From: a virus
Lineage: Duplodnaviria; Heunggongvirae; Uroviricota; Caudoviricetes
Reading direction: 5' to 3' (one strand)
IMG/VR virus record: IMGVR_UViG_2529292883_000003
Location: 1 to 17,115 of that record
Length of the DNA stretch: 17,115 bases
Below are positions 1 to 15,879 of the stretch, in pieces. How positions within the stretch are numbered: the first letter of the stretch is position 1; every line of letters begins with the position of its first letter. Under the pieces are notes generated by a model that was not told the origin of the DNA, searched no databases, and was given only the letters and a program-made list of their open reading frames with translations. The translations under genes and the position numbers were made by a program.

Positions 1-405
1 CATATCCCATATGTAGTCGCCATTCAGCGCTGCCGCCCCCGGCGCACTGATTGCTGTTCCATCGACAAGACGCAATCTCTTTCCGCTTGTACAACCCGTA
101 ACTGCGGCGCGTACAGCAAGTGTTTGTGCGGCAAGTATGCCAAACCAGTCGGCGGCATTCCGCAGCCGCTTCAGGAGAGCCACGTCAGATAATGTTGCAA
201 CGTCATGGAGCTGAGCCCATGCAGTGACTTCACGTAATGACATCCCCCCGGGGCCGTAAGCCAGCCCCAGACGTAGCAGAGTTGCAGCATCACGAATTTC
301 GCGGCGGCGGGTTAGAGCCCCGGCATTACGTGCCGAAGTATCCAGTTCTTCGGGCTTACCAATATGGGCCAGAATTGCTGACCAGTTATCGTGAGAGTAA
401 TTCAT
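1..405 (-). CDS. insL: IS186 transposase, N-terminal ~135 codons (partial; apparent frameshift at the C5 run 36-40)
   Basis: Minus-strand translation from ATG 405-403 gives MNYSHDNWSAILAHIGKPEELDTSARNAGALTRRREIRDAATLLRLGLAYGPGGMSLREVTAWAQLHDVATLSDVALLKRLRNAADWFGILAAQTLAVRAAVTGCTSGKRLRLVDGTAISAP..., matching the IS186 transposase as I remember it. Not in the ORF track because the frame runs off the window edge. Confidence 0.85.
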   Translation of the reverse strand, partial: MNYSHDNWSAILAHIGKPEELDTSARNAGALTRRREIRDAATLLRLGLAYGPGGMSLREVTAWAQLHDVATLSDVALLKRLRNAADWFGILAAQTLAVRAAVTGCTSGKRLRLVDGTAISAPGAAALNGDYIWDM

Positions 406-460
406 CGGCACGTTAAATCATATCAGGCGTAATACCACAACCCTTAAGTTAGCGCTTATG
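1..460 (-). mobile_element. IS186 (IS4 family) end, continues beyond window start
   Basis: Transposase N-terminus recognised (see CDS 1-405), ~55 nt untranslated leader, and the minus-strand sequence CATAAGCGCTAACTTAAGGGTTG (plus 438-460) that I recall as the IS186 terminal repeat. Outer boundary at 460 is approximate and rests on memory of the IR. Confidence 0.7.
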
Positions 461-482
461 GGATTTCTCCCCGCTGGTCCTC

Positions 483-638
483 TTACTCCCCAAGTTCGTA
501 AGCTGTGAAGACAGCGACCTCCGTCTGGTCGGTTCGGATTCGTACCTCGCAGAGGTCTTTCCTCGTTACCAGTACCGTCACTATAACGATTAAACAGATG
601 ACGATCAGGGTGATTAACATCGCCTTTTGCTGCTTCAT
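483..638 (-). CDS. hok: Hok/Gef family type I toxin (HokD/RelF-like), 51 aa
   Basis: MKQQKAMLITLIVICLIVIVTVLVTRKDLCEVRIRTDQTEVAVFTAYELGE: one hydrophobic helix followed by the conserved RKxLCE..R....EVA.F.AYE Hok/Gef signature. Start ATG at 638-636, stop TAA at 485-483. Confidence 0.85.
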   Translation of the reverse strand: MKQQKAMLITLIVICLIVIVTVLVTRKDLCEVRIRTDQTEVAVFTAYELGE

Positions 639-695
639 AGCCCGCTTCTTCTTGCCTTTCAGCACGTAAGAGACTAACCTACGTTTGTAAGGCAT
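483..695 (-). CDS. mok: Mok: N-terminally extended frame sharing the hok stop, 70 aa
   Basis: ORF-track 70-aa frame (MPYKRRLVSYVLKGKKKRA + Hok) starting 57 nt upstream of hok in the same frame, as for chromosomal mok/hok pairs. Confidence 0.6.
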   Translation of the reverse strand: MPYKRRLVSYVLKGKKKRAMKQQKAMLITLIVICLIVIVTVLVTRKDLCEVRIRTDQTEVAVFTAYELGE

Positions 696-758
696 AGATT
701 GGGCCCCAGATTAATGTTAAGCCTCTTGCCGGATGCGTAATATCAACTGGGGTTTTTT
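687..758 (+). ncRNA. sok: putative Sok antisense RNA
   Basis: Plus-strand segment antisense to the mok start region, ending in CCCCAG...CTGGGG followed by TTTTTT (753-758), which looks like an intrinsic terminator. The 5' end is placed by analogy with known hok/sok loci, not seen directly. Confidence 0.35.
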
Positions 759-1241
759 CTATCTGCCTTTGATTTTCATGCCCAAGGCAGATAGCCTCAA
801 GCCCCCGCAGCCATACTATTTAACCCCCGTTACCTCGCCAATATGAAATCAATCAGAAAGGCGATCCATAAGAACAATAGCAAGACAATAAATTGCCACC
901 ACAGCCGCAATAGCCAACGCACACTTGAGAACCAGCACGACAACCTCCTGTATTGGACGTGCACCTGCCCTGATAAATATGAGGCTGTCTCGTCAGTGAT
1001 TCAATACAACTATTGGGTATAGTTTCTGTGATTTTGTTCTGTAGAAATGGAACACAACAACCAGTCACCACCAGCACTTCTTTAAATACGCTAAGTCCGA
1101 CGCAAGCTAACCTTCTAGTCCGCTTTGAGCGAGGAGCGGACCTGACATTGGGGTATGTCAATTTATGGGAGCAGGTCAGGGGCATTAATGCCCCCATATG
1201 GAATAAGTTTCACCTTGACATTAATAATGCTCTTGGGACAA

Positions 1242-2987
1242 TCAAAAACTTTGCTTTAGTGGTACTTCTCTTGACATGTGGATACCATCTTTTGAACGCC
1301 TGCGCTCTTCAAAATAGATAGCTAATGATAAATAGATTATTGAGTTTCTAGCTAATCCAATGAGTTGCATGAGCCTTGATTCAAATTGGCTTATTGGTAT
1401 TAATAGAGAGTGGGAAGATAGTTTTTCTTTTTCATAGATCTTTGATTTTAGATCTGTAAGTCTTAAACTCATCTTATTAACACCATCTTCGAGTTGTTGC
1501 GCTAAACAATTATCCCCATCTTTTTTTGCTTGCTTCATTTTTAATTTTTCATCCCGGATTTTATCTGGTAGTACATTAACTTCTTCTTGGATCTTTCTAA
1601 ATTCACCATCATTATAAGTATTATATGATGTTGCAAGTTCATAGCCAAAATCATCAACTATTTTTAATGAACGATGTTCCATGGCATTTCTAATCTCTGC
1701 AAATGCCACTGCATTTGGATCTAACCACTTTGTTGCTGAATCAGAGTCACCAACTTTACGGATATCTTTTAATATATAGAATAAAGCGTGAATGAAATGA
1801 TTGTCGCTATCTTTCAGCTTTTTATGTGGTTTCCATTTAGTATTATTACTTGTAAAGTCACGGAATAAATTATCTATACTGATTATTTTGTCATGTTTCA
1901 GATCGTTCAAATCAAAGAAGCGACTAATTAAATATGCTACTTTATCAAAAATTGAATATACTATTCTGAATGCTGACTTATACTGAGCAATCTTCAAGTT
2001 ATTAATTGAGTAAGTCATATCCTCAACGTGTTGATATGTTGAGTTGAATATATGAGGGTTATCATCAGGTATATCTTTTGAAGAAAAAATCAAGTACCGA
2101 GCATAACAGTAATCATTTTTTAATTCATCATAATTACCGTGATAAGATAATTCTTCAGACATGGTGAGAGAACTATTAAGCGATTGAACGAATGAGGGGA
2201 ATTCGAAAACATCCTGATAAGTAATCGGGTACTCGCAAGCATCATTCAAATCATTAAGAAAGAGTCTTTTACTAGCGCACCATTCTAAATAGTTTTTCTG
2301 TTTTCTACATGTGGTTTTTTCAGTGTATTCTTTAAAGTAATCGAAGTCCGATGTTTCGAATAACTCCTCGAACCATTTTTTAAAGTTGAATAATTTGCCG
2401 CCTTTCTCAAGTGGCACTCTTTGTTCAGGATATAGTTGATCAATATTCTCAAAACCTTTTTTCACAAGTTCATAAGCGATATAGTAATGATATTCTGAAT
2501 GTCCATTATCATAAAGTGAAAGCCCAAGAAAAATTTCATTATTGGCTTTTGCTATAATTGCAACGAGATTATTATCTATAGAAATAGCTTTATCATAGTG
2601 GGGAATGCAACATAACGTTCTACCTTGTGATGAAAGGCGATTAGCTAAATTTGTCTCAATCATAGACCTAAGACTATTATATGCATGAGTATTATTATCA
2701 TGTTCTCTCCAGTCTACTTTAGGTAGCGCATGTAAAGCTTTCCTGTAAAAGATGACCGATTTCATCAAATCATCTGAATACCACTCAGTTTTACGTGTTT
2801 CATAAAGTACAGAGTAACAATTTCCTAAGCAGTAAAGATAATGAGCCTCGTCTAATTGGTGAGTAAAGGTGAAATCCCGTTCTGTAAAACTCTCTATTAA
2901 TGAAGATAAAGAAACGTGATCACCTTTGATGATGTATTCATCCGCACGTTTACTAAACTCATCAAGTTTATCTTTTTCCAATAACAA
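1242..2987 (-). CDS. hypothetical protein, 581 aa, no family recognised (island cargo)
   Basis: Long uninterrupted minus-strand ORF in AT-rich DNA. TTG start at 2987-2985 sits 5 nt after a perfect AAGGAG (plus 2993-2998 is CTCCTT). No in-frame ATG nearby. Contains an R-x4-H motif (AEIRNAMEHRS) and TPR-like helices; both are weak motif-level hints. Confidence 0.6.
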   Translation of the reverse strand: MLLEKDKLDEFSKRADEYIIKGDHVSLSSLIESFTERDFTFTHQLDEAHYLYCLGNCYSVLYETRKTEWYSDDLMKSVIFYRKALHALPKVDWREHDNNTHAYNSLRSMIETNLANRLSSQGRTLCCIPHYDKAISIDNNLVAIIAKANNEIFLGLSLYDNGHSEYHYYIAYELVKKGFENIDQLYPEQRVPLEKGGKLFNFKKWFEELFETSDFDYFKEYTEKTTCRKQKNYLEWCASKRLFLNDLNDACEYPITYQDVFEFPSFVQSLNSSLTMSEELSYHGNYDELKNDYCYARYLIFSSKDIPDDNPHIFNSTYQHVEDMTYSINNLKIAQYKSAFRIVYSIFDKVAYLISRFFDLNDLKHDKIISIDNLFRDFTSNNTKWKPHKKLKDSDNHFIHALFYILKDIRKVGDSDSATKWLDPNAVAFAEIRNAMEHRSLKIVDDFGYELATSYNTYNDGEFRKIQEEVNVLPDKIRDEKLKMKQAKKDGDNCLAQQLEDGVNKMSLRLTDLKSKIYEKEKLSSHSLLIPISQFESRLMQLIGLARNSIIYLSLAIYFEERRRSKDGIHMSREVPLKQSF

Positions 2988-3212
2988 AGTGACTCCTTAA
3001 CTGTTCATACGAACTGAATGACAAGCTTCGATTTAAAACTAAACATATAAATGTACTATTTAATTATTTATTATATGTGGATTTGGTCGATAATGCTGAT
3101 CTAGTATTTAAGTTTAGGAGCATAAAAAGTGATCTACTCCTCACAATTTAACATAGCGCATGGGTTCAACTTCCGCTTCTGGCACAGGGCTGCTGTTGCA
3201 GCACTGACAACC

Positions 3213-3686
3213 TTAGACTTCAATCGATTCAGAGATCTCTAACGCATCATCGACTTCAATGCCCAGATAACGGACTGTGCTTTCCAGTTTCCTATGGCCC
3301 AACAGAAGTTGGATCACCCAAAGATTCTTGGTTTTCTTGTAGATCAGGTAAGGTTTTGTTCTTCTCATGGAGTGTGTGCTGTAAAGCGAAGCTTCGAGAC
3401 CAAGCTTTTCTACCCACCCATGAAAAATTCGGCTGTATTGCCGGGTTGATATGTGCCGGTTCGTTCCGATCCGAGACCGAAACAAGAAGTCTTTACTGTG
3501 CAAATTGCCAAGCTTTATCAATGCAGCAACAGCTTCTCTTGTCCCTTTGGTTATCTCAAATTGCACAGGGCTACCGATTTTCTGTTGCAGCACCATTACT
3601 CTGCTTGAAGCCGAGCTGCCATATGCAACATCAGATACTTTGAGGTTCACCAGATCACAGCCTCGTAGCTTACTGTCTAAGACCAT
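3213..3686 (-). pseudogene. small tyrosine recombinase (integrase family) remnant, N-terminally truncated
   Basis: 157-aa ORF with box I arginine (KLRGCDLVNLKVSDV) and the C-terminal HSMRRT...LLGHRKLESTVRY catalytic signature (R, HxxR, Y). The same frame stays open upstream to 3803 but is broken by TGA at 3746-3744, with no start codon upstream; only ~6 residues precede box I. Confidence 0.55.
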
Positions 3687-4017
3687 GTTGAACTGAGCTA
3701 AATCACGCGTTTTACCTTCCAGTTCAAGCCGGATTCGGCTCCCTCAGATATGAGATATCTGGAGTTGTCTTTTTTGGCCTATGATACGGTCTTTGTTCCA
3801 CTGTTACATGTTCATAATCAAATCTCCTGCAATGCTGGAGATTTGAGTACGGTTGTCCCTTATGAGCGAGTATTGGACATTGAGTTACTTGTATCAGGGG
3901 TGGTCAAAATATTGGCACTTAGCCATAAAGGTATTTACATCAATGATTTATGATCTTTCCTTAGCAAGATTGCTACTTTTTTGTGAAGTATGTTCATGTC
4001 AATAGTAGGTAATTAAA

Positions 4018-4047
4018 TTTACAAAATCGCGAATTAATGGTTATATA
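4018..4047 (+). promoter_or_regulatory. putative sigma70 promoter for the plus-strand island gene
   Basis: TTTACA (4018-4023), 17-nt spacer, TTATAT/TATATA (4041-4047), about 45 nt upstream of ATG 4090. By-eye match only. Confidence 0.3.
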
Positions 4048-4089
4048 TCCCCTATGGCTTGTTTTTTTAATACGAGGAATCAAACGGAT

Positions 4090-4413
4090 ATGGATAATAA
4101 TATTCTATTTATTTCATCAATTGAGCGGTTTAATGATTTCGAAGAGGTTGTTAGACGCTTTTTACAGCGAATGTTTAATGCAGATGCTTATATTACAAAT
4201 GGCCCTTATGACGGAGGCAAGGACGTCGTTTACTCAGTAAGAGGTCGTGAAATAAGAGAGGTAATACAGGTATCTATTATAAAAAAAGGTTTAGAAGATA
4301 AACTTGAAGAAGACTTAATCAAAACAGATGATTTAATTAAAAAATATAATTACCCTCCTGTATTGAATTTTTTTGGAGCCACAAAATATCTGAAAGCAAG
4401 CTTGAAGTTTTAA
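4090..4413 (+). CDS. Mrr-like (restriction-endonuclease fold) N-terminal ORF, 107 aa, probably the 5' part of a frame-disrupted gene
   Basis: MDNNILFISSIERFNDFEEVVRRFLQRMFNADAYITNGPYDGGKDVVYSVRGREIREVIQVSIIKKG... has the DGGxD core typical of Mrr-type PD-(D/E)xK nucleases. The expected Q-x-K lysine is not obvious (IQVS). GAGGAA lies 12 nt upstream of ATG 4090. The ORF-track start at 4054 is an in-frame extension. Confidence 0.5.
   Translation: MDNNILFISSIERFNDFEEVVRRFLQRMFNADAYITNGPYDGGKDVVYSVRGREIREVIQVSIIKKGLEDKLEEDLIKTDDLIKKYNYPPVLNFFGATKYLKASLKF
4368..4374 (+). repeat. T7 homopolymer at the frame junction between ORF 4090-4413 and ORF 4560-6359
   Basis: The downstream frame is open from 4350 (after TAA 4347-4349); the upstream frame closes at 4411-4413. 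The T7 run is the only homopolymer in the 4350-4410 overlap and fits the X XXY YYZ slippery pattern (T TTT TTT) in the upstream frame. Confidence 0.5.
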
Positions 4414-4559
4414 AAAGCAATGCCAGAAAAAATTATGGGATAACCCTCGAGTTTTATGACGCAAATAGAATATCTCAAAAAATCACCAATGATTATCCGG
4501 AGATATTAACCTTTCTTCTTGAGGAAGTTCACAATTATCAATCCTCTAAAAAGGATGAG

Positions 4560-6359
4560 TTGGACATAAAAGAAATAGCATTTTACGAATATCTGGTGTT
4601 AAGTAAAGATGCTGCCAATTTAAAGAATGTAATTATTGATTCATACATAGTTTCATTACTTACAGGTCAAGGGAAGTCAGAGCATGATTTAATCAATGAA
4701 ACCCAAATTCTTGGGGTACACAATGAAACTCTTAAAAATAGATTGTATCTTTTAAAGCGAGATAATCGAATTATCCTTGATGGAGATTTATACAGTCTGT
4801 CTGAGGTTGAAAGTAAGAGAATCAGGAATCTTGAGTTAAAAGAAATAGCCAAAAGGAATGAGGTTTTAACAATAATTGGTAATGCGACCTCAAAATACTT
4901 TAGTGAAAATATATCCACCGAGGTTCTTGACCTAATTAAGGAGGCTTATGCTGAGTCGGTCAATCTACAGCTTAATGAATTAAACTTCGAATCCCCAAGA
5001 AATCAAATTGTTAAAGGAATTATTAAACAACTGGAAAAATTGATAACTGAAAAAGGAAAAATAAACAACTCATTGTCTTCAAAATTAGCTAATGAGCTTG
5101 TTGAGTTATCTGGGAGAAATGAATATCTTTCAGACTATTGCTCATCAAGGCTATGCATAACTCTATTAAATCAAAAGAAACTTGAAAGATATATTGACAA
5201 TAAAACGTTTTTTTTATACCTAGATGCCCCAGTATTGATTCCATATCTTGTTGCATTAAGATACGATAAAATTTCTAACAGTGAAAAATCGATAAGCACT
5301 GTTAAAACGTTAAAGAAAATAGTATTTAACCTTAAAAACAGACACATTCGTGTAACCCAAGAACATCTTGAAGAAACAGTACGACATTTATTAAATGGAA
5401 TGAAAATTAGTTCTTTTGCCAATGATGAATTAGTTAGGAAGATAGGTAATTCTAAAAACGTATTTTTTAATACATATATAAATATTAAAAAAAGCAAACC
5501 TAGTAGTTACAATTTCGAAAATTTTTTAGAAGATTTTATTGGCTATGAAGATACATCTGGCTCTATCGATGCAAAGTTTTATAAACTAATTCGTTCAGTC
5601 TCTCAGTATTTAAATCTAAATAGAATTGAAGTTATTTCAACCTCAGTTTATCAGGAAGATAGAATCATTGAGGAAGTTGCCAGGAAGTTTTCTAGGCAAA
5701 TATCTGGTCCAAAAAAAAGAAATCCACGAACTATTAATAATGATATTTATGCTGCATTAACCTTATCTGATGACAGCATACACTGCGATGAAAAGGGAGT
5801 CGGTCAAATCCCTATGCTAATTACATGGGATGCAACTCAGCACACACTCAGGAATATAGTAAGACAAAAAGATAAATATAAAGAATGGTTGGTTTACACT
5901 CCCCAAAGAGCAATTGAAAGACTTTCAATGTTAGAAATGAAAATTGAGAGCTCCGCAATTAAAGATGGTGTTTTAGCAATTATTGATGAGGATTATTTCT
6001 TCAAGGAAAACGATTCAAATTTAATCGATACTCTGGCATTGCTAGTGAAAGATGATTCCCCTGACGCTGGCGCATTAACAACTTTGATAAATAAACTATC
6101 GCAAAGGGTAACCGAGGAGTCTTTAGATTCTCAAGATATTGAAAAAGAAGCATTCAATACTTTAAACGAGATTTTAGTATTTACTTACACTGAGTTTAAA
6201 GATAATTTTAGCCAGGTAAAAATTGTTTTCAGTGATGAAAAATATACCGACTCAATCTTTGAGATACTAACCTCAACACTTAAGCGACCTTTCGATGATT
6301 CTTCTAGAATAGAGTATAAAAATAAAATAGACGAAATAATTTCAGTTCACTTTGGTTGA
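4560..6359 (+). CDS. hypothetical protein, 599 aa as called (TTG start); likely C-terminal part of a ~755-aa nuclease-domain fusion
   Basis: Long ORF in AT-rich DNA. Its frame has no ATG, GTG or TTG between 4350 and the TTG at 4560, and no internal Met for ~275 codons. Weak AAGGA 4 nt before the TTG. No family recognised. Confidence 0.55.
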   Translation: MDIKEIAFYEYLVLSKDAANLKNVIIDSYIVSLLTGQGKSEHDLINETQILGVHNETLKNRLYLLKRDNRIILDGDLYSLSEVESKRIRNLELKEIAKRNEVLTIIGNATSKYFSENISTEVLDLIKEAYAESVNLQLNELNFESPRNQIVKGIIKQLEKLITEKGKINNSLSSKLANELVELSGRNEYLSDYCSSRLCITLLNQKKLERYIDNKTFFLYLDAPVLIPYLVALRYDKISNSEKSISTVKTLKKIVFNLKNRHIRVTQEHLEETVRHLLNGMKISSFANDELVRKIGNSKNVFFNTYINIKKSKPSSYNFENFLEDFIGYEDTSGSIDAKFYKLIRSVSQYLNLNRIEVISTSVYQEDRIIEEVARKFSRQISGPKKRNPRTINNDIYAALTLSDDSIHCDEKGVGQIPMLITWDATQHTLRNIVRQKDKYKEWLVYTPQRAIERLSMLEMKIESSAIKDGVLAIIDEDYFFKENDSNLIDTLALLVKDDSPDAGALTTLINKLSQRVTEESLDSQDIEKEAFNTLNEILVFTYTEFKDNFSQVKIVFSDEKYTDSIFEILTSTLKRPFDDSSRIEYKNKIDEIISVHFG

Positions 6360-6519
6360 CTGTTTGGGGAGAGGGTTCTCCCCAATTAAAGAACTTATTA
6401 ACAATATCGATAAAGTTGTGAACTGTTCCCCATGGATTGATGCAGATAGGTGCTATCAACATCCGCCTTTGGCACAAAGCGGACAACCACGCTAGCTCTA
6501 CCGACATGGCTTTTCCCAT
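6304..6519 (-). CDS. hypothetical small ORF immediately downstream of ydaV (ydaW position), C-terminus runs into the island boundary
   Basis: 71-aa ORF-track frame (MGKAMSVELAWLSALCQRRMLIAPICINPWGTVHNFIDIVNK...). The first ~45 codons lie in normal-GC DNA, the tail reads through the boundary hairpin. No convincing SD. Confidence 0.25.
   Translation of the reverse strand: MGKAMSVELAWLSALCQRRMLIAPICINPWGTVHNFIDIVNKFFNWGEPSPQTVNQSELKLFRLFYFYTLF
6364..6385 (+). terminator. hairpin just after the 599-aa ORF stop (possible terminator / island boundary)
   Basis: TTGGGGAGA-GGGT-TCTCCCCAA: 9-bp stem with 4-nt loop, 5 nt after TGA 6357-6359. No U-tract follows on either strand, so terminator function is uncertain. 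Confidence 0.3.
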
Positions 6520-6572
6520 TGCTTTAAGTGCGTCAAAAAACAGTCTCCATTAAAATTTCCTCCCGATAAAAA

Positions 6573-7319
6573 TTACTTCGCAGTTCCTGGCTGGACGACA
6601 TTCGGACGCCAGCTCTCCCAGTTAAAATTCACCCAGCGTCCGCCGTTCATGGTCATGCGATCCATAATCCGCTCGCCGAGCAATGTTTTCATCGCCTCAT
6701 AGTTCAGGTTTGTCAGCATTCCCACGCCGCGCATCGACGCTGTCCGGCGATCAACAATCTGGTGCAGTACCACCTGCTCGTTTTTCGTATCGCGCTGAAT
6801 ACCAATTTCATCAAGAACCAGCAGATCAACTTCGCACAGTTCCCGCAAAAATTTTTCGCCTGACTGCCCGTCGTCATAGCTGGCGTGCAGGGCGCTCATA
6901 ACATCAGCCACGGTAACCACAATCACTGTCTGACCGTCTTTCAGCAGGCGATTCCCGATAGCCGCCGCCAGATGGTTTTTTCCGGTACCAGGTTTTCCAC
7001 TGAACGCAAAATTTGTACACCCGACCATCAGTTCATCGGCGATGAATTTCGCCTGGCTCAACGCGTATCGCTGACCGTCGTTCTGCACCTGGTAATTCGA
7101 AAACGAGCATTTGCGGTGCAATGGCTGGATGCCAGAGCGATTCAGAATTTTTTCCACCCGCAACTGACGATTCTGACGGTTGATCTCCTCACAACGTTTC
7201 TGGCCTTCGGAAAGTTGCCACTCACGCCACTCCGCCACCGTCTTGAATGGCGCGGTTACATGTGACGGGGCCAGTCTGCGGATACGTTCAAGAACGCCGC
7301 CTGTCGCAATATTTTTCAT
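6573..7319 (-). CDS. ydaV: Rac prophage replication protein, DnaC/IstB-like helicase loader
   Basis: 248 aa; Walker A GKPGTGKNHLAAAIG; recognised as YdaV; SD-like GGGGG upstream of ATG 7319. Confidence 0.85.
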   Translation of the reverse strand: MKNIATGGVLERIRRLAPSHVTAPFKTVAEWREWQLSEGQKRCEEINRQNRQLRVEKILNRSGIQPLHRKCSFSNYQVQNDGQRYALSQAKFIADELMVGCTNFAFSGKPGTGKNHLAAAIGNRLLKDGQTVIVVTVADVMSALHASYDDGQSGEKFLRELCEVDLLVLDEIGIQRDTKNEQVVLHQIVDRRTASMRGVGMLTNLNYEAMKTLLGERIMDRMTMNGGRWVNFNWESWRPNVVQPGTAK

Positions 7320-7325
7320 GGTCAG

Positions 7326-8183
7326 TTACCCCCTGAAGCCTGGTGGGATCGCACTGTCCGGTAACGAAACGGTGTTAACCCGTCGGAGTAACGTCTCAGG
7401 TCGAACACCTTTCGGCGCGAACAAGCCCTGGTATTCGTTGGCGATGCTGTGTCGAATCACCTGCTCAGGTGAAAAACCCTGCTGGCGGAATTTTTCCAGC
7501 TCCCGTATCGCCCCGTTAGCGCCCTGCTCCGTTCGAATCGGTTTACGCAATGCCTGGCGAAATTCAACCCACTCACGCCAAAGCGAGAAAGAAATCCAGT
7601 TCGGCAAAGCAATATCCAGAGGGTCAAACTTTTTGATACCTAGATTCCCCCGGGGGGGATTTAGGGGGGGATCTGTTTTTAGATCTTTATCTGTATCTTT
7701 ATTAGTTGCCTTTGTGTTGACATCATGTTCAAACACCACTTCAACATCTGTTTGAACACCTGTTAAATTTCTCTCTTGTTTTGTTTGAACAACTGCTTCC
7801 TTTCTGCTTCTTCTGGCCTGAACAGATGCTTTTCCTGCGGCTGATTTTTTGGTTAATTTTTCCCTGACTGATGCCAGATCTTCCTCAATCCGAAGATGCA
7901 CCCATTCCTCGCCGTTATCGCAAAAAAACTCCTGCAAGGATGGTTCAACATCAGCCCATCGCTCGTTAGTCAGACGGGCAATTTTTGCCAGCCTGTTTTT
8001 AGGTATTGGCTTTCCTGTTTGCCAGTAATTGAACATCAGCAACAAATACGCACCATGCTCCTCTGCTGACAAATGCATGGTGTCAGCCAGGTAATCAGCT
8101 ATGTACAGTTGCATGTATGGTAATGCGGCCATAATTGCCCCGTATGATGCTGCCCGGTGGCTTAGAATAAGCACAAACAGCAT
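7326..8183 (-). CDS. ydaU: Rac prophage replication initiation protein (O-like)
   Basis: 285 aa, recognised as YdaU; stops 6 nt before the ydaV start (operon). Confidence 0.8.
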   Translation of the reverse strand: MLFVLILSHRAASYGAIMAALPYMQLYIADYLADTMHLSAEEHGAYLLLMFNYWQTGKPIPKNRLAKIARLTNERWADVEPSLQEFFCDNGEEWVHLRIEEDLASVREKLTKKSAAGKASVQARRSRKEAVVQTKQERNLTGVQTDVEVVFEHDVNTKATNKDTDKDLKTDPPLNPPRGNLGIKKFDPLDIALPNWISFSLWREWVEFRQALRKPIRTEQGANGAIRELEKFRQQGFSPEQVIRHSIANEYQGLFAPKGVRPETLLRRVNTVSLPDSAIPPGFRG

Positions 8184-8195
8184 GGAAACTTTTGC

Positions 8196-8618
8196 TTAAT
8201 GAACAATGACAGAATCGTCGGAAGACCCGCCGCCGCTGAAATGCGCTTTCCGGTAAACGGCCTGGACTGCATCATCATGCGCATCAATTGCCGTACTTAA
8301 CGCTTCCTGCGCCGCCAGTAATGCACGGCGTTCCAGGGTATCGAAGATGCAGAGTCGGTGACGCAGCTCGCGCGGAAGGATTGCCAGAATTGCAGGGATC
8401 AGTTTCTGAATTTTTTCCCTTTGCGCTTCCGTTTCACCTTTTAACCAACGGTGATAGATGTTCTGCTGATTATTCCAGTCCTTGCCTGGTACCAGGGGCA
8501 ATTCGCCGCCCCCCTGGCGCAGATATTCTTCAGTAATGGCATTGGCTACCCATGCCTGCCCTTTTTCGGCTGCCAGGGCTAACAACACTGACTCGATGTG
8601 CTCATGCTTGATTTTCAT
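8196..8618 (-). CDS. ydaT: Rac prophage protein YdaT
   Basis: 140 aa (MKIKHEHIESVLLALAAEKGQAWVANAITEEY...); start overlaps the ydaS stop (ATGA). Confidence 0.8.
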   Translation of the reverse strand: MKIKHEHIESVLLALAAEKGQAWVANAITEEYLRQGGGELPLVPGKDWNNQQNIYHRWLKGETEAQREKIQKLIPAILAILPRELRHRLCIFDTLERRALLAAQEALSTAIDAHDDAVQAVYRKAHFSGGGSSDDSVIVH

Positions 8619-8869
8619 GAATCAACTCCCATCAGCTTTTTCGTAGTAGTTTTATTTCTGCCAATAGTTAAAATTACATCGGCAGAAAATAATCCGTTTG
8701 ATGCATGAGCGATTTTTTCAGCGTAATTTGTTTCGCCGGTATATTCTGTGCGAGGCAATTTTCCGTTATCCATCCATTTGTAGATTGCTCTTTGGCTGAC
8801 ACCACAAATGTCGGCCACAACAGAAACGCGAACAGTTTTGATTACATCTTCAAGTGTTTTCTGGTTCAT
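8615..8869 (-). CDS. ydaS: Cro-like HTH regulator
   Basis: MNQKTLEDVIKTVRVSVVADICGVSQRAIYKWMDNGKLPRTEY... with an HTH. Start at ATG 8869-8867 chosen because GAGGGTGA precedes it; the ORF-track start at 8941 would lie 8 nt from the divergent racR start. Confidence 0.7.
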   Translation of the reverse strand: MNQKTLEDVIKTVRVSVVADICGVSQRAIYKWMDNGKLPRTEYTGETNYAEKIAHASNGLFSADVILTIGRNKTTTKKLMGVDS

Positions 8870-8948
8870 ATCACCCTCACAATGTGAACTTTGAGTACAT
8901 GCTATAACAGAACTGACAGTACATTCAAGAGCGAATATCATTGAACTT
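8870..8948. promoter_or_regulatory. divergent racR/ydaS promoter-operator region (OR-like)
   Basis: 79-bp gap between divergent starts containing two direct copies of GAACTnnnAGTACAT (8886-8900 and 8910-8924), 24 bp apart. Confidence 0.45.
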
Positions 8949-9368
8949 ATGGTTCATGAAGATAAAGCGCGTAAAGAGTTCGCCAGTAGGCTTGCGCTAG
9001 CCTGTGAAAACGCTGGTTATGAACAACATGGAAGGCAGGCAGAAATTGCCCGTCGAATGAAATTAACACCAAAAGCGGTTAGCAAATGGTTTAATGGCGA
9101 AACAATTCCTCGCCGAGAGAAATTAAGGGAATTAGCAACACTCATTGGAACAACACCAACCTATCTTTTGGGAGAGGATACAGAAGAAAGTGGACAGGTA
9201 CGTTTCTATCAGGAGTTAAATCCAAGACAAAAAATCATCATTGACCTTCTGGACGAGCTCCCTGACAGTGAGACAGATGAACTTTTAAAAACTCTTGAGG
9301 AGAAAAAACAGAAGTACAATGCAATTTACGAAGAGTTAGCACGAAAGAAAAAACAAAAAGCCTCTTAA
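8949..9368 (+). CDS. racR: prophage repressor, CI-like HTH protein
   Basis: 139-aa ORF divergent from ydaS with an HTH (LTPKAVSKWFNGETIP). Position matches racR; length differs from what I remember for K-12, so the allele may differ. Confidence 0.65.
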   Translation: MVHEDKARKEFASRLALACENAGYEQHGRQAEIARRMKLTPKAVSKWFNGETIPRREKLRELATLIGTTPTYLLGEDTEESGQVRFYQELNPRQKIIIDLLDELPDSETDELLKTLEEKKQKYNAIYEELARKKKQKAS

Positions 9369-9439
9369 ACCAGCATAAATCCGGTAGCGCCCCCCTCCGG
9401 GTTTGTGCTTCACTTTATCCCATCTCATTTTTTTACACA

Positions 9440-9490
9440 CAAAATGTACTTAAAGTACTTTACATCAATGAACACAAAGTACATCATATA
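9440..9490. promoter_or_regulatory. OL-like operator/promoter region downstream of racR
   Basis: ATGTACT (9444-9450, inverse of AGTACAT), 10-bp palindrome AAAGTACTTT (9452-9461) and AGTACAT (9478-9484): the same core as in the racR/ydaS gap. Confidence 0.35.
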
Positions 9491-9658
9491 CCTACCAACC
9501 CACCCCGCCCCACAGAACGCAGGGCAATACTTCGAGTTACCAGGCAGTGGTCAGGGGTTAAGTAGCCAGCCCGAGGCGTATGAACATGACGGCAGGGTTC
9601 AGATTTTGCAGTGCAGCAGGTTTCAGTTCCGCCACCCGGCGTTAAGGGGAGAGATAAG

Positions 9659-9793
9659 ATGGTGCATTACGAAGTAGTTCAGTATTTGATGGATTGTTGC
9701 GGTATCACTTACAACCAGGCTGTGCAGGCTTTACGCAGCAACGACTGGGATCTCTGGCAGGCAGAAGTCGCTATACGTAGCAACAAGATGTGA
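9659..9793 (+). CDS. ydaG: Rac prophage small protein YdaG, 44 aa
   Basis: MVHYEVVQYLMDCCGITYNQAVQALRSNDWDLWQAEVAIRSNKM preceded by GGGGAGAG; the ORF-track start at 9611 is an in-frame extension. Confidence 0.7.
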   Translation: MVHYEVVQYLMDCCGITYNQAVQALRSNDWDLWQAEVAIRSNKM

Positions 9794-9803
9794 GATTCGC
9801 AAA

Positions 9804-9959
9804 ATGCAAAAAATCGACCTCGGCAACAACGAATCCCTGGTGTGCGGCGTGTTCCCCAACCAGGATGGAACGTTCACTGCCATGACGTATACCAAAAGCA
9901 AAACATTTAAAACCGAAACTGGTGCGCGCCGATGGTTGGAGAAGCACACAGTAAGCTAA
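9804..9959 (+). CDS. ydaF: Rac prophage small protein YdaF, 51 aa
   Basis: MQKIDLGNNESLVCGVFPNQDGTFTAMTYTKSKTFKTETGARRWLEKHTVS; below the ORF-track length cut-off; stop overlaps the sieB stop by 4 nt (convergent). Confidence 0.65.
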   Translation: MQKIDLGNNESLVCGVFPNQDGTFTAMTYTKSKTFKTETGARRWLEKHTVS

Positions 9960-10444
9960 CGATTAAAACGTCTACTCCTGCTGTTCCAGAATAACTTCAT
10001 AAAATGGGAGTATTTTTCGGTGACGAGATAATAAGAACAGTTTGCGCTATCACTCTGATGTTGAATGATGCCCTTCCGTTCTAATTTTTTCATAACCGGG
10101 TTACGGCAAGGAGAAGTGATAATAAGATTTCCTGTTTTAAGGAAATCTTTAAATACAGCGATTTCTTTCTCAGATAAACGAAGCAATACTCGTTGCTCTG
10201 GTAGTAATGAATAATGCTTTTGAATATGTGCTCGCCATCTTGAGAAGGAAATGGCGACCACGAAAGAAAAGGCAAAAACGATAATCTGAAAGAGCCAAGG
10301 TATTTCAGTATAAGCATTGAATGCGACAGTAAACTCTTTCGGTATCAGCCAGAGAGTGAGACCAAAAATGATAATCGTATACATAAGTCTTTCGAGTGGC
10401 TCGTTAGCAAAAAGTTTCAACAATGGAGTAAATACATCCAACAT
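9956..10444 (-). CDS. sieB: superinfection exclusion protein B
   Basis: 162 aa from internal Met (MLDVFTPLLKLFANEPLERLMYTIIIFGLTLWLIPKEF...), membrane helices; the ORF-track frame is N-terminally over-extended. Confidence 0.8.
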   Translation of the reverse strand: MLDVFTPLLKLFANEPLERLMYTIIIFGLTLWLIPKEFTVAFNAYTEIPWLFQIIVFAFSFVVAISFSRWRAHIQKHYSLLPEQRVLLRLSEKEIAVFKDFLKTGNLIITSPCRNPVMKKLERKGIIQHQSDSANCSYYLVTEKYSHFMKLFWNSRSRRFNR

Positions 10445-10885
10445 ATCAATAACTCTCAACTGTAAGGGTATTGAAATGTTAACACAAGCTCTCGCTGTAG
10501 GGGTATAGCCGAGACCACCGAAGCCCGGAGGTGGTGAAATAAAACCGGGCACAACACGAAGGCGCATTTCCGATATCCATAAAGAGTCGGTCTTGTCTGT
10601 TAAATTTAAATGGTGGGAGTGCGCCTCCGGTTGTAAATAACGACATTGCTGTGTGTAGTCCTGGCGGCATCAGTTTTTTTCTTGAAGTTCGGCTGATGTC
10701 CGCCCTTTTTAAAGTGAATTTTGTGATGCGGTGAATGCGGCTAAGCGCACGTGGCACAGTTAAAAGTCATGTTAGTCCTTATTGGTTTGGGGGGGAAAGC
10801 CGACTGTAATTGTTAACTGGTTGCAGTCACCTGGAGGCACCAGGCACCGCATCAACAAAGTTCATTTGTAAAAATGGAGATAATT

Positions 10886-11107
10886 ATGATTGCACATCAC
10901 TTCGGAACTGATGAAATACCACGTCAGTGTGTGACTCCTGGCGATTATGTTCTTCATGAAGGCCGGACATATATTGCCTCGGCAAACAATATTAAAAAGC
11001 GAAAACTATATATTCGTAACCTGGCCACAAAAACATGCATTACTGACCGCATGATTAAAGTCTTCCTCGGTCGTGATGGGTTACCTGTAAAGGCGGAGTC
11101 ATGGTGA
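10886..11107 (+). CDS. kilR: Kil-like inhibitor of cell division
   Basis: 73 aa ([42 protein letters not shown]...), GGAGA 6 nt upstream of ATG 10886. Confidence 0.8.
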
Positions 11108-11277
11108 TGACTAAGAAAATAAAATGTGCTTACCACCTTTGCAAAAAAGACGTTGAAGAAAGCAAAGCTATTGAAAGAATGCTTCACTTCATGCACGGGA
11201 TTTTATCAAAAGACGAACCGAGAAAATATTGCAGTGAAGCTTGTGCCGAAAAAGACCAGATGGCACATGAACTTTAA
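11107..11277 (+). CDS. ydaE: small Cys-rich protein YdaE, 56 aa
   Basis: [56 protein letters not shown]; ATG overlaps the kilR stop (TGATG); below the ORF-track cut-off. Confidence 0.7.
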   Translation: MTKKIKCAYHLCKKDVEESKAIERMLHFMHGILSKDEPRKYCSEACAEKDQMAHEL

Positions 11278-11351
11278 TTAATTGACTATTCGAAACTGAA
11301 TTTATGCCAGAAATGGCAGGTATTCGCTCAACCTTAATTAAGGAGAAAAAC

Positions 11352-11627
11352 ATGATTACCAATTATGAAGCCACTGTTGTAACTACCGATGACATTGTTC
11401 ACGAGGTGAATCTGGAAGGAAAGCGCATTGGCTACGTAATTAAAACAGAAAATAAAGAAACCCCATTCACTGTGGTTGATATCGATGGTCCATCAGGCAA
11501 CGTAAAAACACTTGATGAAGGTGTCAAAAAAATGTGCCTGGTGCATATCGGAAAGAATCTGCCCGCAGAAAAAAAAGCCGAATTTCTGGCAACTCTAATT
11601 GCAATGAAATTAAAAGGTGAAATCTGA
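11352..11627 (+). CDS. racC: Rac prophage protein RacC, 91 aa
   Basis: MITNYEATVVTTDDIVHEVNLEGKRIGYVIKTENKETPF...; AGGAG 6 nt upstream of ATG 11352. Confidence 0.8.
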   Translation: MITNYEATVVTTDDIVHEVNLEGKRIGYVIKTENKETPFTVVDIDGPSGNVKTLDEGVKKMCLVHIGKNLPAEKKAEFLATLIAMKLKGEI

Positions 11628-11634
11628 AAGAAAT

Positions 11635-11655
11635 AGCCTGCGTATGGCGCAGGCT
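11635..11655 (+). other. stem-loop between racC and recE
   Basis: AGCCTGCG-TATGG-CGCAGGCT: perfect 8-bp stem, 5-nt loop, no U-tract. Confidence 0.35.
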
Positions 11656-11728
11656 ATGAACAGTGTGTATCCGGCAAGATCATTCACTGAACAAAACGAA
11701 TTTTAATCTGAGTTGAGGTTAAAAAACA

Positions 11729-14329
11729 ATGAGCACAAAACCACTCTTCCTGTTACGGAAAGCGAAAAAATCATCCGGTGAACCTGACGTCGTCCTGTGG
11801 GCAAGCAACGATTTTGAATCGACCTGTGCCACTCTGGACTACCTGATCGTTAAGTCAGGTAAAAAACTGAGCAGCTATTTTAAAGCTGTTGCCACGAATT
11901 TTCCTGTCGTTAATGACCTGCCCGCTGAAGGTGAGATCGATTTTACCTGGAGTGAACGCTATCAACTCAGCAAAGACTCCATGACATGGGAACTAAAACC
12001 GGGAGCAGCACCAGACAACGCTCACTATCAAGGCAATACCAACGTCAACGGCGAAGACATGACTGAGATTGAGGAGAATATGCTACTCCCAATTTCTGGC
12101 CAGGAACTGCCCATTCGTTGGCTTGCTCAACACGGCAGCGAAAAACCGGTAACGCACGTTTCACGCGACGGACTCCAGGCATTACACATTGCTCGGGCTG
12201 AAGAACTACCGGCTGTTACTGCCCTGGCTGTTTCCCACAAAACCAGCCTGCTCGACCCGCTGGAAATTCGCGAACTCCACAAACTGGTTCGTGACACTGA
12301 CAAAGTTTTCCCTAATCCTGGTAATTCAAACCTGGGACTGATAACTGCTTTTTTCGAAGCATACCTGAACGCTGACTACACCGATCGAGGACTGCTGACA
12401 AAAGAGTGGATGAAGGGTAATCGTGTTTCACACATCACTCGCACGGCTTCCGGTGCTAATGCTGGCGGCGGAAACCTCACCGATCGCGGCGAAGGTTTCG
12501 TACACGATCTGACGTCACTGGCGCGCGACGTAGCCACTGGCGTACTGGCCCGTTCAATGGATCTGGACATCTATAACCTTCATCCGGCACACGCTAAACG
12601 CATTGAGGAAATTATCGCTGAAAATAAACCGCCCTTTTCTGTTTTCCGCGACAAATTCATCACCATGCCTGGCGGGCTGGATTATTCCCGCGCCATCGTG
12701 GTTGCGTCCGTAAAAGAAGCACCAATTGGGATCGAGGTCATCCCCGCGCACGTCACTGAATATCTGAACAAAGTACTGACTGAAACCGATCATGCCAACC
12801 CTGATCCGGAAATCGTGGATATTGCCTGCGGTCGCTCCTCTGCCCCGATGCCGCAGCGAGTAACAGAAGAAGGAAAACAGGATGATGAAGAAAAACCGCA
12901 ACCATCTGGAACAACGGCAGTTGAACAGGGAGAGGCTGAAACAATGGAACCGGACGCAACTGAACATCATCAGGACACGCAGCCGCTGGATGCTCAGTCA
13001 CAGGTAAATTCTGTTGATGCGAAATATCAGGAACTGCGGGCAGAACTCCATGAAGCCCGGAAAAACATTCCATCAAAAAATCCTGTCGATGCCGATAAAT
13101 TGCTTGCAGCATCACGTGGTGAATTTGTTGACGGAATTAGCGACCCGAACGATCCGAAATGGGTAAACGGGATCCAGACTCGCGATTGTGTGTACCAGAA
13201 CCAGCCAGAAACGGAAAAAACCAGACCAGATATGAATCAACCTGAGCCAGTAGTGCAACAGGAACCGGAAATAGCCTGCAATGCCTGCGGCCAGACTGGC
13301 GGGGATAACTGCCCTGACTGTGGTGCGGTGATGGGCGACGCAACATACCAGGAAACATTCGATGAAGAGAGTCAGGTTGAAGCTAAGGAAAATGATCCGG
13401 AGGAAATGGAAGGCGCTGAACATCCGCACAATGAGAATGCTGGCAGCGATCCGCATCGCGATTGCAGTGATGAAACTGGCGAAGTCGCAGATCCCGTAAT
13501 CGTAGAAGACATAGAGCCAGGTATTTATTACGGAATTTCGAATGAGAATTACCACGCGGGTCCCGGTGTCAGTAAGTCTCAGCTCGATGACATTGCTGAT
13601 ACTCCGGCACTATATTTGTGGCGTAAAAATGCCCCCGTGGACACCACAAAGACAAAAACGCTCGATTTAGGAACCGCTTTCCACTGCCGGGTACTTGAAC
13701 CGGAAGAATTCAGTAACCGCTTTATCGTAGCACCTGAATTTAACCGCCGTACAAACGCCGGAAAAGAAGAAGAGAAAGCGTTTCTGATGGAATGCGCAAG
13801 CACAGGAAAAACAGTTATCACTGCGGAAGAAGGCCGGAAAATTGAACTCATGTATCAAAGCGTTATGGCTTTGCCGCTGGGGCAATGGCTTGTTGAAAGC
13901 GCCGGACACGCTGAATCATCAATTTACTGGGAAGATCCTGAAACAGGAATTTTGTGTCGGTGCCGTCCGGACAAAATTATCCCTGAATTTCACTGGATCA
14001 TGGACGTGAAAACTACGGCGGATATTCAACGATTCAAAACCGCTTATTACGACTACCGCTATCACGTTCAGGATGCATTCTACAGTGACGGTTATGAAGC
14101 ACAGTTTGGAGTGCAGCCAACTTTCGTTTTTCTGGTTGCCAGCACAACTATTGAATGCGGACGTTATCCGGTTGAAATTTTCATGATGGGCGAAGAAGCA
14201 AAACTGGCAGGTCAACAGGAATATCACCGCAATCTGCGAACCCTGTCTGACTGCCTGAATACCGATGAATGGCCAGCTATTAAGACATTATCACTGCCCC
14301 GCTGGGCTAAGGAATATGCAAATGACTAA
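11729..14329 (+). CDS. recE: exodeoxyribonuclease VIII (RecE)
   Basis: 866-aa ORF recognised as RecE ([41 protein letters not shown]...); GAGG upstream; stop overlaps the recT start. Confidence 0.9.
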
Positions 14330-15131
14330 GCAACCACCAATCGCAAAAGCCGATCTGCAAAAAACTCAGGGAAACCGTGCACCAGCAGCAGTTAAAAATA
14401 GCGACGTGATTAGTTTTATTAACCAGCCATCAATGAAAGAGCAACTGGCAGCAGCTCTTCCACGCCATATGACGGCTGAACGTATGATCCGTATCGCCAC
14501 CACAGAAATTCGTAAAGTTCCGGCGTTAGGAAACTGTGACACTATGAGTTTTGTCAGTGCGATCGTACAGTGTTCACAGCTCGGACTTGAGCCAGGTAGC
14601 GCCCTCGGTCATGCATATTTACTGCCTTTTGGTAATAAAAACGAAAAGAGCGGTAAAAAGAACGTTCAGCTAATCATTGGCTATCGCGGCATGATTGATC
14701 TGGCTCGCCGTTCTGGTCAAATCGCCAGCCTGTCAGCCCGTGTTGTCCGTGAAGGTGACGAGTTTAGCTTCGAATTTGGCCTTGATGAAAAGTTAATACA
14801 CCGCCCGGGAGAAAACGAAGATGCCCCGGTTACCCACGTCTATGCTGTCGCAAGACTGAAAGACGGAGGTACTCAGTTTGAAGTTATGACGCGCAAACAG
14901 ATTGAGCTGGTGCGCAGCCTGAGTAAAGCTGGTAATAACGGGCCGTGGGTAACTCACTGGGAAGAAATGGCAAAGAAAACGGCTATTCGTCGCCTGTTCA
15001 AATATCTGCCCGTATCAATTGAGATCCAGCGTGCAGTATCAATGGATGAAAAGGAACCACTGACAATCGATCCTGCAGATTCCTCTGTATTAACCGGGGA
15101 ATACAGTGTAATCGATAATTCAGAGGAATAA
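14322..15131 (+). CDS. recT: RecT single-strand annealing protein
   Basis: 269 aa from ATG 14322 ([32 protein letters not shown]...); the ORF-track start at 14265 is an in-frame extension inside recE. Confidence 0.9.
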
Positions 15132-15138
15132 TTCAGCC

Positions 15139-15175
15139 TGGCGGTGTAATACACCGCCAACTTGAAATATTTTTT
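15139..15175 (+). terminator. hairpin plus T-run after recT
   Basis: TGGCGGTG-TAATA-CACCGCCA (15139-15159) followed 10 nt later by TTTTTT (15170-15175); the spacing is long for a canonical intrinsic terminator. Confidence 0.3.
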
Positions 15176-15187
15176 ATGAGAAAAATT

Positions 15188-15382
15188 ATGAGATATGACA
15201 ATGTTAAACCATGTCCATTTTGTGGTTGTCCATCAGTAACGGTGAAAGCCATTTCAGGATATTACCGAGCGAAGTGTAACGGATGCGAATCCCGAACCGG
15301 TTATGGTGGAAGTGAAAAAGAAGCACTCGAAAGATGGAATAAACGAACCACTGGAAATAATAATGGAGGTGTTCATGTATAA
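15188..15382 (+). CDS. ralR: restriction alleviation protein Lar/RalR, 64 aa
   Basis: MRYDNVKPCPFCGCPSVTVKAISGYYRAKCNGCESRTGYGGSEKEALERWNKRTTGNNNGGVHV, Cys-rich. Confidence 0.8.
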   Translation: MRYDNVKPCPFCGCPSVTVKAISGYYRAKCNGCESRTGYGGSEKEALERWNKRTTGNNNGGVHV

Positions 15383-15584
15383 AATTACCGCCACTATTGA
15401 AAAGGAAGGTGGCACTCCTACTAACTGGACAAGATATTCAAAATCTAAACTAACGAAATCAGAATGCGAAAAAATGCTCTCAGGTAAAAAAGAAGCAGGC
15501 GTTTCCAGAGAGCAGAAAGTAAAACTGATAAATTTTAATTGCGAGAAACTTCAGTCCTCGAGAATTGCATTGTATTCAAATTAA
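15375..15584 (+). CDS. ydaC: Rac prophage protein YdaC, 69 aa
   Basis: MYKITATIEKEGGTPTNWTRYSKSKLTKSECEKMLSGKKEAG...; ATG overlaps the ralR 3' end. Confidence 0.7.
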   Translation: MYKITATIEKEGGTPTNWTRYSKSKLTKSECEKMLSGKKEAGVSREQKVKLINFNCEKLQSSRIALYSN

Positions 15585-15662
15585 AACTTCATAGCTGATT
15601 ATTAATAATCAACATCGGGCGTCAATTTCAGTCTAACATTGGCGCCTGCCAGAGGTGATGCG

Positions 15663-15878: not shown

Positions 15879-15879
15879 T

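Follow-up and report, generated by a model that had tools for sequence, protein, structure and literature searches.

A decayed tyrosine-recombinase gene and its palindromic sites in the low-GC island of a Rac-type prophage

The island and its recombinase pseudogene

The stretch of DNA considered here, referred to throughout as the window, comprises the 17,115 nucleotides (positions 1 to 17,115) of the IMG/VR virus record IMGVR_UViG_2529292883_000003. Its open reading frame (ORF) content, which includes intR, recT, recE, racC/kilR, sieB, ydaS/T/U/V and hok/sok, is that of an Escherichia coli Rac-type lambdoid prophage, and the window matches NZ_CP123009 (E. coli O155 NWU_3) at 98.8-99.5%. Between ydaV (6573-7319) and hok/sok lies an island with a guanine-plus-cytosine (GC) content of 30-35%, as against about 43-52% in the flanks, that contains a HEPN gene, a recombinase pseudogene and a plus-strand gene at 4090-6359. 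The pseudogene (3213-3815, minus strand) belongs to a 200-residue, catalytic-domain-only type of tyrosine recombinase. With a probability of roughly 0.7, and judging from comparative sequence analysis, it is the inactivated gene of a minimal recombinase family that travels with cargo as a small site-specific integrative unit; such a unit, cargo A together with the recombinase, would have entered the Rac prophage at a site designated T1 and then decayed.

The lesions are defined by alignment with the intact 200-residue gene WP_113419545.1 (locus L002), to which the window copy is 92.6% identical at the nucleotide level, and consist of two point nonsense substitutions with no indel, frameshift or truncation. 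Codon 24 (3744-3746, minus strand), a TGG encoding a Trp that is invariant in the homologues, has become the TGA that the first-pass annotation had placed at 3746-3744. The second nonsense codon, codon 4 (3804-3806, minus strand), is a TCA for Ser in intact homologues and a TAA here, and it conceals the native start. Both the native ATG (3815-3813) and an AGGAG ribosome-binding site (3828-3824) are kept, contrary to the initial description of a frame that lacked any start codon upstream, and the feature extends from its stop codon (3215-3213) to 3815 rather than ending at 3803. The longest open ORF in this frame (3686-3213; 157 residues) does begin 6 residues ahead of the LRG motif, as had been noted, but the native frame continues to the ATG, and comparison with the full-length homologue WP_113419545.1 shows that the truncated arrangement is not the native gene start.

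The repaired window protein matches PF00589 at 56.9 bits (cut-off 27.1; E=2.9e-15) over residues 31-180 of a 196-residue query, with no match to other domains, and bears all of the motifs (LRG, HSMRRT, LLGH and RY) on which its assignment to the tyrosine recombinases had been based. The catalytic residues R51 (LRG), H148/R151 (HSMRR), H174 (LLGH) and Y183 (RY), each invariant in 25 homologues, are kept in the window copy. Elsewhere in the protein, 7 of the 98 near-invariant columns deviate (P5Q, P17Q, W24*, I26S, L41Q, R166W and K175R), where such a column is at least 97% conserved among 110 homologues and the median homologue deviates at one. The identical sequence in NZ_CP123009 is labelled a pseudogene with an 'internal stop' by RefSeq/PGAP, and, taken by itself, the window feature reads as an ordinary pseudogene that is no longer intact.

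Because only about 35 residues precede the catalytic domain, the recombinase has neither a core-binding nor an arm-binding domain. The absence of both N-terminal domains excluded a phage integrase or an integrase of an integrative and conjugative element (ICE) of the arm-binding kind, and membership in the FimB/FimE, Xer and integron families was excluded by hidden Markov model (HMM) scores below cut-off. The tyrosine-type DNA invertase models NF007371 (FimE-type) and NF007370 (FimB-type) returned 26.4 bits against a cut-off of 222 and 17.9 against 221, the Xer models 56 bits against 220 (XerA) and 48 against 335 (XerC), and the integron-integrase models, in which the IntI-specific insertion is represented, 16.7 against 435 and 15.9 against 265. 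A sequence search of the PDB with the recombinase gave marginal XerD matches alone (E of about 0.005), and an AlphaFold model of the intact homologue, built on a shallow alignment, reached a predicted local distance difference test score of 53.

Two potential hairpins border the gene. Just 5' of the ATG, an inverted repeat (3815-3849, minus strand; z = -3.9) of the form TCAAATCTCC-N8-GGAGATTTGA, conserved across the enterobacterial clade, pairs with the GGAG of the ribosome-binding site and may control translation of the recombinase. Immediately past the stop codon, a second hairpin (3185-3206, minus strand) provides the inner arm of the site T1' described below; it is weakened in the window by a G-to-T change (z of -0.96, compared with -3.3 in an intact copy) and, having no T run, is not a canonical intrinsic terminator. 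Among 150 loci, a GC-rich hairpin whose sequence varies by clade follows nearly every full-length homologue, and in most clades it is succeeded by the motif ...GCCA-nn-AGCGG(A/C)C. The conserved DNA around the gene reaches some 55 nt beyond the ATG on the upstream side and some 45 nt past the stop codon.

Relatives of this recombinase are widespread. In the protein collection, homologues of the intact protein number more than 8000 clusters at 78-96% identity, from Escherichia, Providencia, Proteus, Pantoea, Idiomarina, Cycloclasticus and other genera of the Enterobacterales, Alteromonadales and other orders, and identity this high across orders indicates horizontal spread. Among species-representative genomes, at least 547 loci carry a gene for a relative; in the 80 loci kept from these, identity falls as low as about 60%, in Pseudomonas, Burkholderiales and other genera, and the recombinase was also found on 366 plasmids. 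By megablast, intact 603-bp genes about 92% identical to the window copy and annotated 'site-specific integrase' occur in hundreds of E. coli genomes, such that 858 genomes match the window segment and 772 hold at least 80% of the intact gene region. The gene borders blocks of cargo in dissimilar elements, and its genomic contexts include P4-integrase/ssrA islands of Providencia, beside a block of LysR, aldo-keto-reductase and glutathione-peroxidase genes; ICE-like elements, beside ars and cop/cus genes; E. coli lambdoid prophages, between the replication genes and hok; and plasmids.

The T1 and T2 sites and the cassettes between them

A scan of all loci delineated two 24-bp palindromic sites, T1 (GTCCGCTT-TGTGCCAN-AAGCGGAC) and T2 (GTCCGCTY-YTCGCTCA-NAGCGGAC), each composed of 8-bp inverted arms (GTCCGCTT/AAGCGGAC) that enclose an asymmetric spacer of 8 bp; in nearly all loci both types are oriented as the gene is. 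Save at two fixed positions, the spacers of T1 and T2 are reverse complements of each other, and the two sites are therefore mutually inverted and heterospecific. The recombinase gene lies between a T2-type site on its 5' side and a T1-type site on its 3' side, as it does in the window.

Read along the minus strand, the island is ordered T1 (6484-6461), cargo A, T2' (3878-3855), the recombinase pseudogene, the hairpin with T1' (3194-3171), the HEPN gene and T2 (1141-1118). T1, on the ydaV or replication-gene side of the island, reads GTCCGCTT-TGTGCCAA-AGGCGGAT; of its parts, the conserved prophage backbone supplies the outer arm and the spacer, and cargo A the inner arm. T2', 5' of the recombinase gene, reads GTCCAATA-CTCGCTCA-TAAGGGAC and combines an outer arm that has decayed in the window with an inner arm, TAnGGGAC, typical of the recombinase unit. 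T1', 3' of the gene, reads AGCAGCCC-TGTGCCAG-AAGCGGAA and joins the recombinase unit to the HEPN cassette, while T2, on the hok/sok side, reads GTCCGCTC-CTCGCTCA-AAGCGGAC with 0 mismatches to the pattern. For T1, T1' and T2 the chance expectation was 0 in 200 shuffles. The outer T1 and T2 coincide with the limits of the low-GC island and account for one inverted repeat (I1) detected in the window. The backbone just outside T2 (1105-1140) and T1 (6462-6497) is itself partly an inverted repeat (AGCTAACCTTCTA... / ...AACCACGCTAGCT), and the docking locus may have originated as a single long palindrome into which cassettes were then inserted.

In the enterobacterial clade the spacers are TGTGCCA and TCGCTCA, and T1' lies within 70 nt of the stop codon in 28 of 38 loci. 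The Pseudomonas and Burkholderiales clades, whose recombinases are 60-65% identical, have the same arms but a T1-like spacer of (T/C)CGGCCA and a T2-like spacer of TGGGTCG or CTGGCCGG; as the clades share arms yet differ in spacer, the spacer covaries with the enzyme. Two recombinase copies within 20 kb of each other were seen in loci L016, L053, L072 and L116, and a variant spacer, TGTATCA, comes after the second of the L016 copies and hints at sub-specificities inside the family.

Viral sequences provide the broadest view of how the sites are arranged. Exact T1 and exact T2 were each found in at least 119 IMG/VR contigs, all sites lie on one strand in 219 of the 224 viral loci that bear them, and the commonest architecture, seen in 98 viral loci, is T1 followed by T2 at a spacing of 0.4-4.3 kb. 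All fetched loci together yielded 169 T1-to-T2 cassettes with 77 cargo clusters, set among 48 upstream and 52 downstream flank types. A single lambdoid flank pair, represented by 71 loci, accommodates 20 different cargos, and five cargos are shared between flank pairs. When the junctions are tabulated, similarity between loci ends inside the sites, with the backbone retaining the outer arm and the 7-nt core of the spacer; the inner arms have at most 2 mismatches in 45 of 49 T1 and 39 of 50 T2 sites despite the unrelated cargos to which they belong, where chance would give 0.004 per site.

Pairwise comparisons resolve individual units. The Providencia loci L003 and L006 have in common a 6.5-kb block, 98.9% identical, that resides in P4-type islands with different integrases. 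The block starts with GTCGGCTC-TGTGCCAG-AAGTAGAC, where the second island has GGCGGCTC-TGTGCCAG-AAGCAGAC, and ends at the recombinase-proximal ...CAGCCC-TGTGCCA of T1', and on this comparison it is evidently a unit flanked by direct repeats of one site. Locus L246, with the layout T1-Y-T2, and locus L002, with the layout T1-X-(T2.linker.T1*)-Y-T2'-rec-T1'-Z-T2, hold a cargo Y that is 99.7% identical between them; in L002, 28-nt T1 repeats flank unit X and 16-nt T2 repeats flank the unit of recombinase and Z. In arrays, such as those of L021 (Erwinia) and L022 (Buttiauxella), cassettes are separated by composites in which T2 and T1 stand 15-18 nt apart, and the position of this array linker between T2 and T1 is the one that the recombinase gene takes.

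Among the cargos is a demonstrated defence protein. Cassette Y of L002 (8965-10314) adjoins the intact recombinase of a Qin/DicA-type prophage that is common among clinical E. coli, and its product is PD-T7-1 (PADLOC E=3.7e-157), an experimentally validated anti-phage protein (PMC9519451). The fun(Z) gene of phage P2 (L393; NC_001895) is likewise flanked, by T1 at 15335-15358 and T2 at 17432-17455. Cargo ORFs are of mixed orientation within the cassettes (44 versus 30), which suggests that each cargo brings promoters of its own. A 74-nt remnant comprising the upstream region and the first 20 nt of the recombinase ORF also lies in the gpG/gpFI (Z/fun) hotspot of P2-like phages. In two such loci (L014, vB_EcoM-720R8, and L015, vB_YpM_22; about 5001-6430), a T1 variant (GTCCGCTC-TGTGCTAG-GAGCGGAC), a gene for a 373-residue cargo, T2' and the 20-nt recombinase start follow one another, and the recombinase remnant is joined directly to the terminator upstream of FI, an arrangement that reads as a deletion relic of the same type of cargo and recombinase unit.

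The two cargos of the window itself are of unequal condition. Cassette A (3879-6460, plus strand) carries the gene at 4090-6359, whose product has 756 residues in NZ_CP123009 and no family match. Relative to NZ_CP123009, the T run at about 4367 (4360-4370) has lost 1 nt, which shifts the frame and divides the gene into ORFs 4054-4413 and 4560-6359, a split that reflects either a frameshift pseudogene or a homopolymer sequencing error. Cassette B (1142-3170, minus strand) carries an intact gene (1242-2987) for an LA2681-type HEPN protein of 581 residues (Pfam 5e-32). This cassette was found in just 3 genomes, and in a further 2 at 80% identity in an unrelated ssrA island, and it is too rare to yield a polymorphism. 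The same HEPN_LA2681 gene (6243-7982 in locus L001) is annotated as two coding sequences in NZ_CP123009, where the region differs at window positions 2040, 2214 and 2709; as the gene is intact in the window and divided in NZ_CP123009, close relatives of the island bear different lesions.

Origin of the island and competing explanations

A mechanism can be proposed in which recombinase monomers would bind the 8-bp arms and exchange strands inside the invariant 7-bp core of the spacer, and in which T1 and T2 would each recombine with their own kind alone. A circle of cargo and T2'-rec-T1' could then integrate at a resident T1, as envisaged for the window and for L003 and L006, or at a resident T2, as envisaged for L002 in comparison with L246. 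Cassettes that have no recombinase and end in a T2-linker-T1 composite would be moved in trans, and co-resident elements would trade a cassette by means of a double crossover, T1 x T1 plus T2 x T2. In the window, a unit of about 3.3 kb comprising cargo A and the recombinase would have integrated at the T1 of a Rac-type prophage that already held the HEPN cassette, for the order T1-cargoA-T2'-rec-T1'-HEPN-T2 is the product expected of such a circle integrating at T1. Decay would have followed in the form of the two nonsense codons, the substitutions at conserved positions, the eroded arms of T2' and T1 and the frameshift in cargo A, and the island would now be frozen unless a recombinase were supplied in trans. 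Each of the three complete genomes with the element showed one matching place per record at megablast sensitivity and, since the window query matched only once per record, these genomes hold no close second copy of the recombinase to act in trans. The proposal of the first-pass annotation that the gene may be a relic of the element that delivered the island has thus gained support, in that the sites on either side of the pseudogene are of the types found at the limits of the island and like units have been inserted precisely elsewhere.

A wider reading, held more tentatively and at a little short of even odds, is that the pseudogene may be the fossil of an enzyme behind the integration and exchange of cassettes at T1 and T2 throughout the Proteobacteria, docking cargo, with validated anti-phage genes such as PD-T7-1 and P2 fun among it, in the hotspots of lambdoid, P2 and P4-type elements.

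Several observations weigh against attributing these events to the recombinase. The argument for its action on T1 and T2 is a comparative one, built on precise insertions and deletions and on spacers that vary with the clade. Just 8 of the 224 viral site-bearing loci contain the recombinase, and a search of 50,697 deposited phage genomes found no close intact copy, the best match (58% amino acid identity) being a metagenomic record; most cassettes would consequently need the enzyme in trans, or else the sites serve something else. With some 770 complete E. coli genomes positive and the deposited phages negative, the carriers may be mostly cryptic prophages. The arms beside the recombinase gene are non-canonical, an upstream T1 with an exact core was found in only 12 of the 30 enterobacterial-clade loci that have at least 5 kb of upstream sequence, and the part played by T2 is less evident than that of T1. 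Queries that represented the empty site and the pre-insertion junctions found no contiguous match in 5426 E. coli genomes; the locus that comes closest to being empty, L164, has its T1 and T2 separated by 240 nt.

The main alternative, although an unlikely one, holds that the recombinase is an unrelated passenger, such as a multimer-resolution enzyme, and that T1 and T2 are conserved palindromes at the boundaries, where cargo would be exchanged through homologous or illegitimate recombination or by some other enzyme. Resolution systems typically pair a gene with one site beside it, the low frequency of the gene among viral site-bearing loci (about 4%) and its lack of a close intact copy in isolated phages would suit a passenger, and some backbone flanks are long enough for homologous recombination. 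The same sites, however, flank cargo in unrelated backbones that include P4-type islands, P2, lambdoid prophages and elements of other genera; the breakpoints fall inside the 24-bp sites, to which unrelated cargos bring their own consensus arms; and both site types frame the recombinase gene in every context, with spacers that follow the clade of the enzyme. A single att site beside the gene, for integration or resolution, had also been considered and was dropped once second sites were found upstream. Far less probable is the former invertible switch suggested at the outset, in which an invertase of the FimB/FimE type would have controlled the flanking genes by inverting a segment with a promoter. 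Likeness to FimB/FimE extends to size and to the missing core-binding domain but not to the family scores given above, and the inverted relation of the T1 and T2 spacers, together with the exact inverted copies that flank the gene in the Pseudomonas clade, would befit an invertase. Against this, alignments between related cassettes run in the same orientation in 398 instances and in the opposite orientation in 0, no recombinase among the 224 viral site-bearing loci is inverted relative to its own sites, the two fixed spacer differences should block exchange between T1 and T2, and a promoter and terminator scan of 3100-4150 predicted neither, sigma-70-like promoters included.

The two remaining alternatives concern the state of the gene rather than its kinship. 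That it is still functional, through readthrough or recoding of its stops or by way of the 157-residue product from 3686, is rendered barely credible by the presence of two different stops, TAA and TGA, in a window whose other long ORFs use the standard code, and by the 43 conserved N-terminal residues, several of them invariant, that the shorter ORF does not include; the otherwise intact frame and preserved catalytic residues speak for residual function, but the seven changes at near-invariant positions are accompanied by decay of the 3' hairpin, the site arms and cargo A. The least probable explanation is that the stop codons are errors of sequencing or assembly, for which nothing specific argues beyond the occurrence of the cargo A frameshift in an error-prone homopolymer. 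Both lesions are substitutions and not homopolymer indels, positions 3000-4100 of the window are 100% identical in three independently assembled complete genomes, and the copy on IMG/VR contig L124 agrees with that of the window in its protein identity (89%), in the sequence 3' of its stop codon and in the sites that flank it. The identity of the three genomes and the agreement of L124 indicate that the lesions are real.

Elsewhere in the window, an Rfam scan located a sok RNA beside hok (633-806) and the RalA small RNA beside ralR (15381-15559), both ordinary Rac/Qin components, and found no Rfam family inside the island. The sieB region (9938-10490) has no counterpart in the otherwise 99% identical locus of NZ_CP123009, a difference that is an indel polymorphism in the Rac immunity region.

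Relation to known systems and significance

Part of this system has been described before. According to a review (PMC8987985), Nilsson, Karlsson and Haggard-Ljungquist (2004, Mol Biol Evol 21:1) proposed a site-specific exchange of fun by way of flanking inverted repeats, and the T1 and T2 around fun in P2 are very probably the same pair of sites as those repeats. The presence of T1 and T2 around P2 fun makes both the sites and the concept of a site-specific exchange at P2 Z/fun, as far as the review conveys them, prior art. The P2 system as the review presents it covers P2-like phages and some enterobacterial genomes, whereas here the sites are tied to a family of 200-residue recombinases and extend to lambdoid prophages, P4-type islands, several genera and arrays. 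Full-text literature searches, in which the site sequences were included and the 2004 study was represented by its title and the review, returned no paper that links the sites to the 200-residue recombinase, to lambdoid hotspots, to arrays or to other elements, and the assignment of an enzyme and the breadth of the system thus appear to be new.

Comparison with better-known recombination systems reveals partial likenesses in each case. Integrons share with the T1/T2 system a tyrosine recombinase, cassette arrays, composite imperfect palindromes, a majority of cassettes that have no recombinase, and anti-phage cargo. They differ in that the IntI models failed here and that the T1/T2 system has no attI/Pc platform; its recombinase gene, unlike that of integrons, sits inside the inter-cassette site and moves with the cargo. 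The T1 and T2 sites are moreover sequence-conserved 24-bp duplex palindromes of two heterospecific kinds, and the cargo ORFs lie in both orientations, in arrays housed inside the hotspots of other mobile elements, again unlike integrons. The pdif modules of Acinetobacter plasmids, which Blackwell and Hall are said to have described in 2017, reportedly rely on the host XerCD and on dif-like sites of 11-6-11 format. They too are discrete cargo modules with short, inversely oriented sites in many backbones, but the T1/T2 arms (GTCCGCTT) bear no relation to dif, the T1/T2 sites enclose a recombinase gene of their own, and the Xer models failed.

FimB and FimE, for their part, are E. coli proteins of about 200 residues that consist of the catalytic domain only, although the present recombinase falls far below their family cut-offs and neither an invertible segment nor an inversion was found among the loci compared. 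A formal parallel is the engineered lox/FRT cassette exchange, in which two sites with identical arms and incompatible spacers surround a cassette. In that layout, intramolecular excision and inversion are disfavoured and exchange between molecules is possible. The T1/T2 sites differ in being natural and of 8-8-8 rather than 13-8-13 format, and here exchange is inferred from sequence comparison.

In the window itself the recombinase gene is inactive and the island with its two cassettes is immobile, and the system that this pseudogene reveals matters more than the gene. Prophage and satellite hotspots exchange anti-phage genes very fast. An earlier survey proposed recombination at cos ends together with homologous recombination for this exchange (PMC9122126), and in the 2026 literature the mobilisation function of defence hotspots was still unknown (PMC13586616); both of these surveys regard how the exchange comes about as unknown. 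The sites and the recombinase offer a concrete, testable mechanism for at least the lambdoid replication/hok and the P2 Z/fun hotspots, the T1...T2 signature can be used to harvest candidate defence cargos, 77 of which came from a small sample, and the system is possibly a natural toolkit for cassette exchange. The recombinase family occurs in ICE-like elements and on plasmids as well, beyond the T1/T2 hotspots of prophages and P4-type islands. If the wider reading is true, the T1/T2 system would supply the mobilisation function that is missing from the literature on defence hotspots (PMC13586616).

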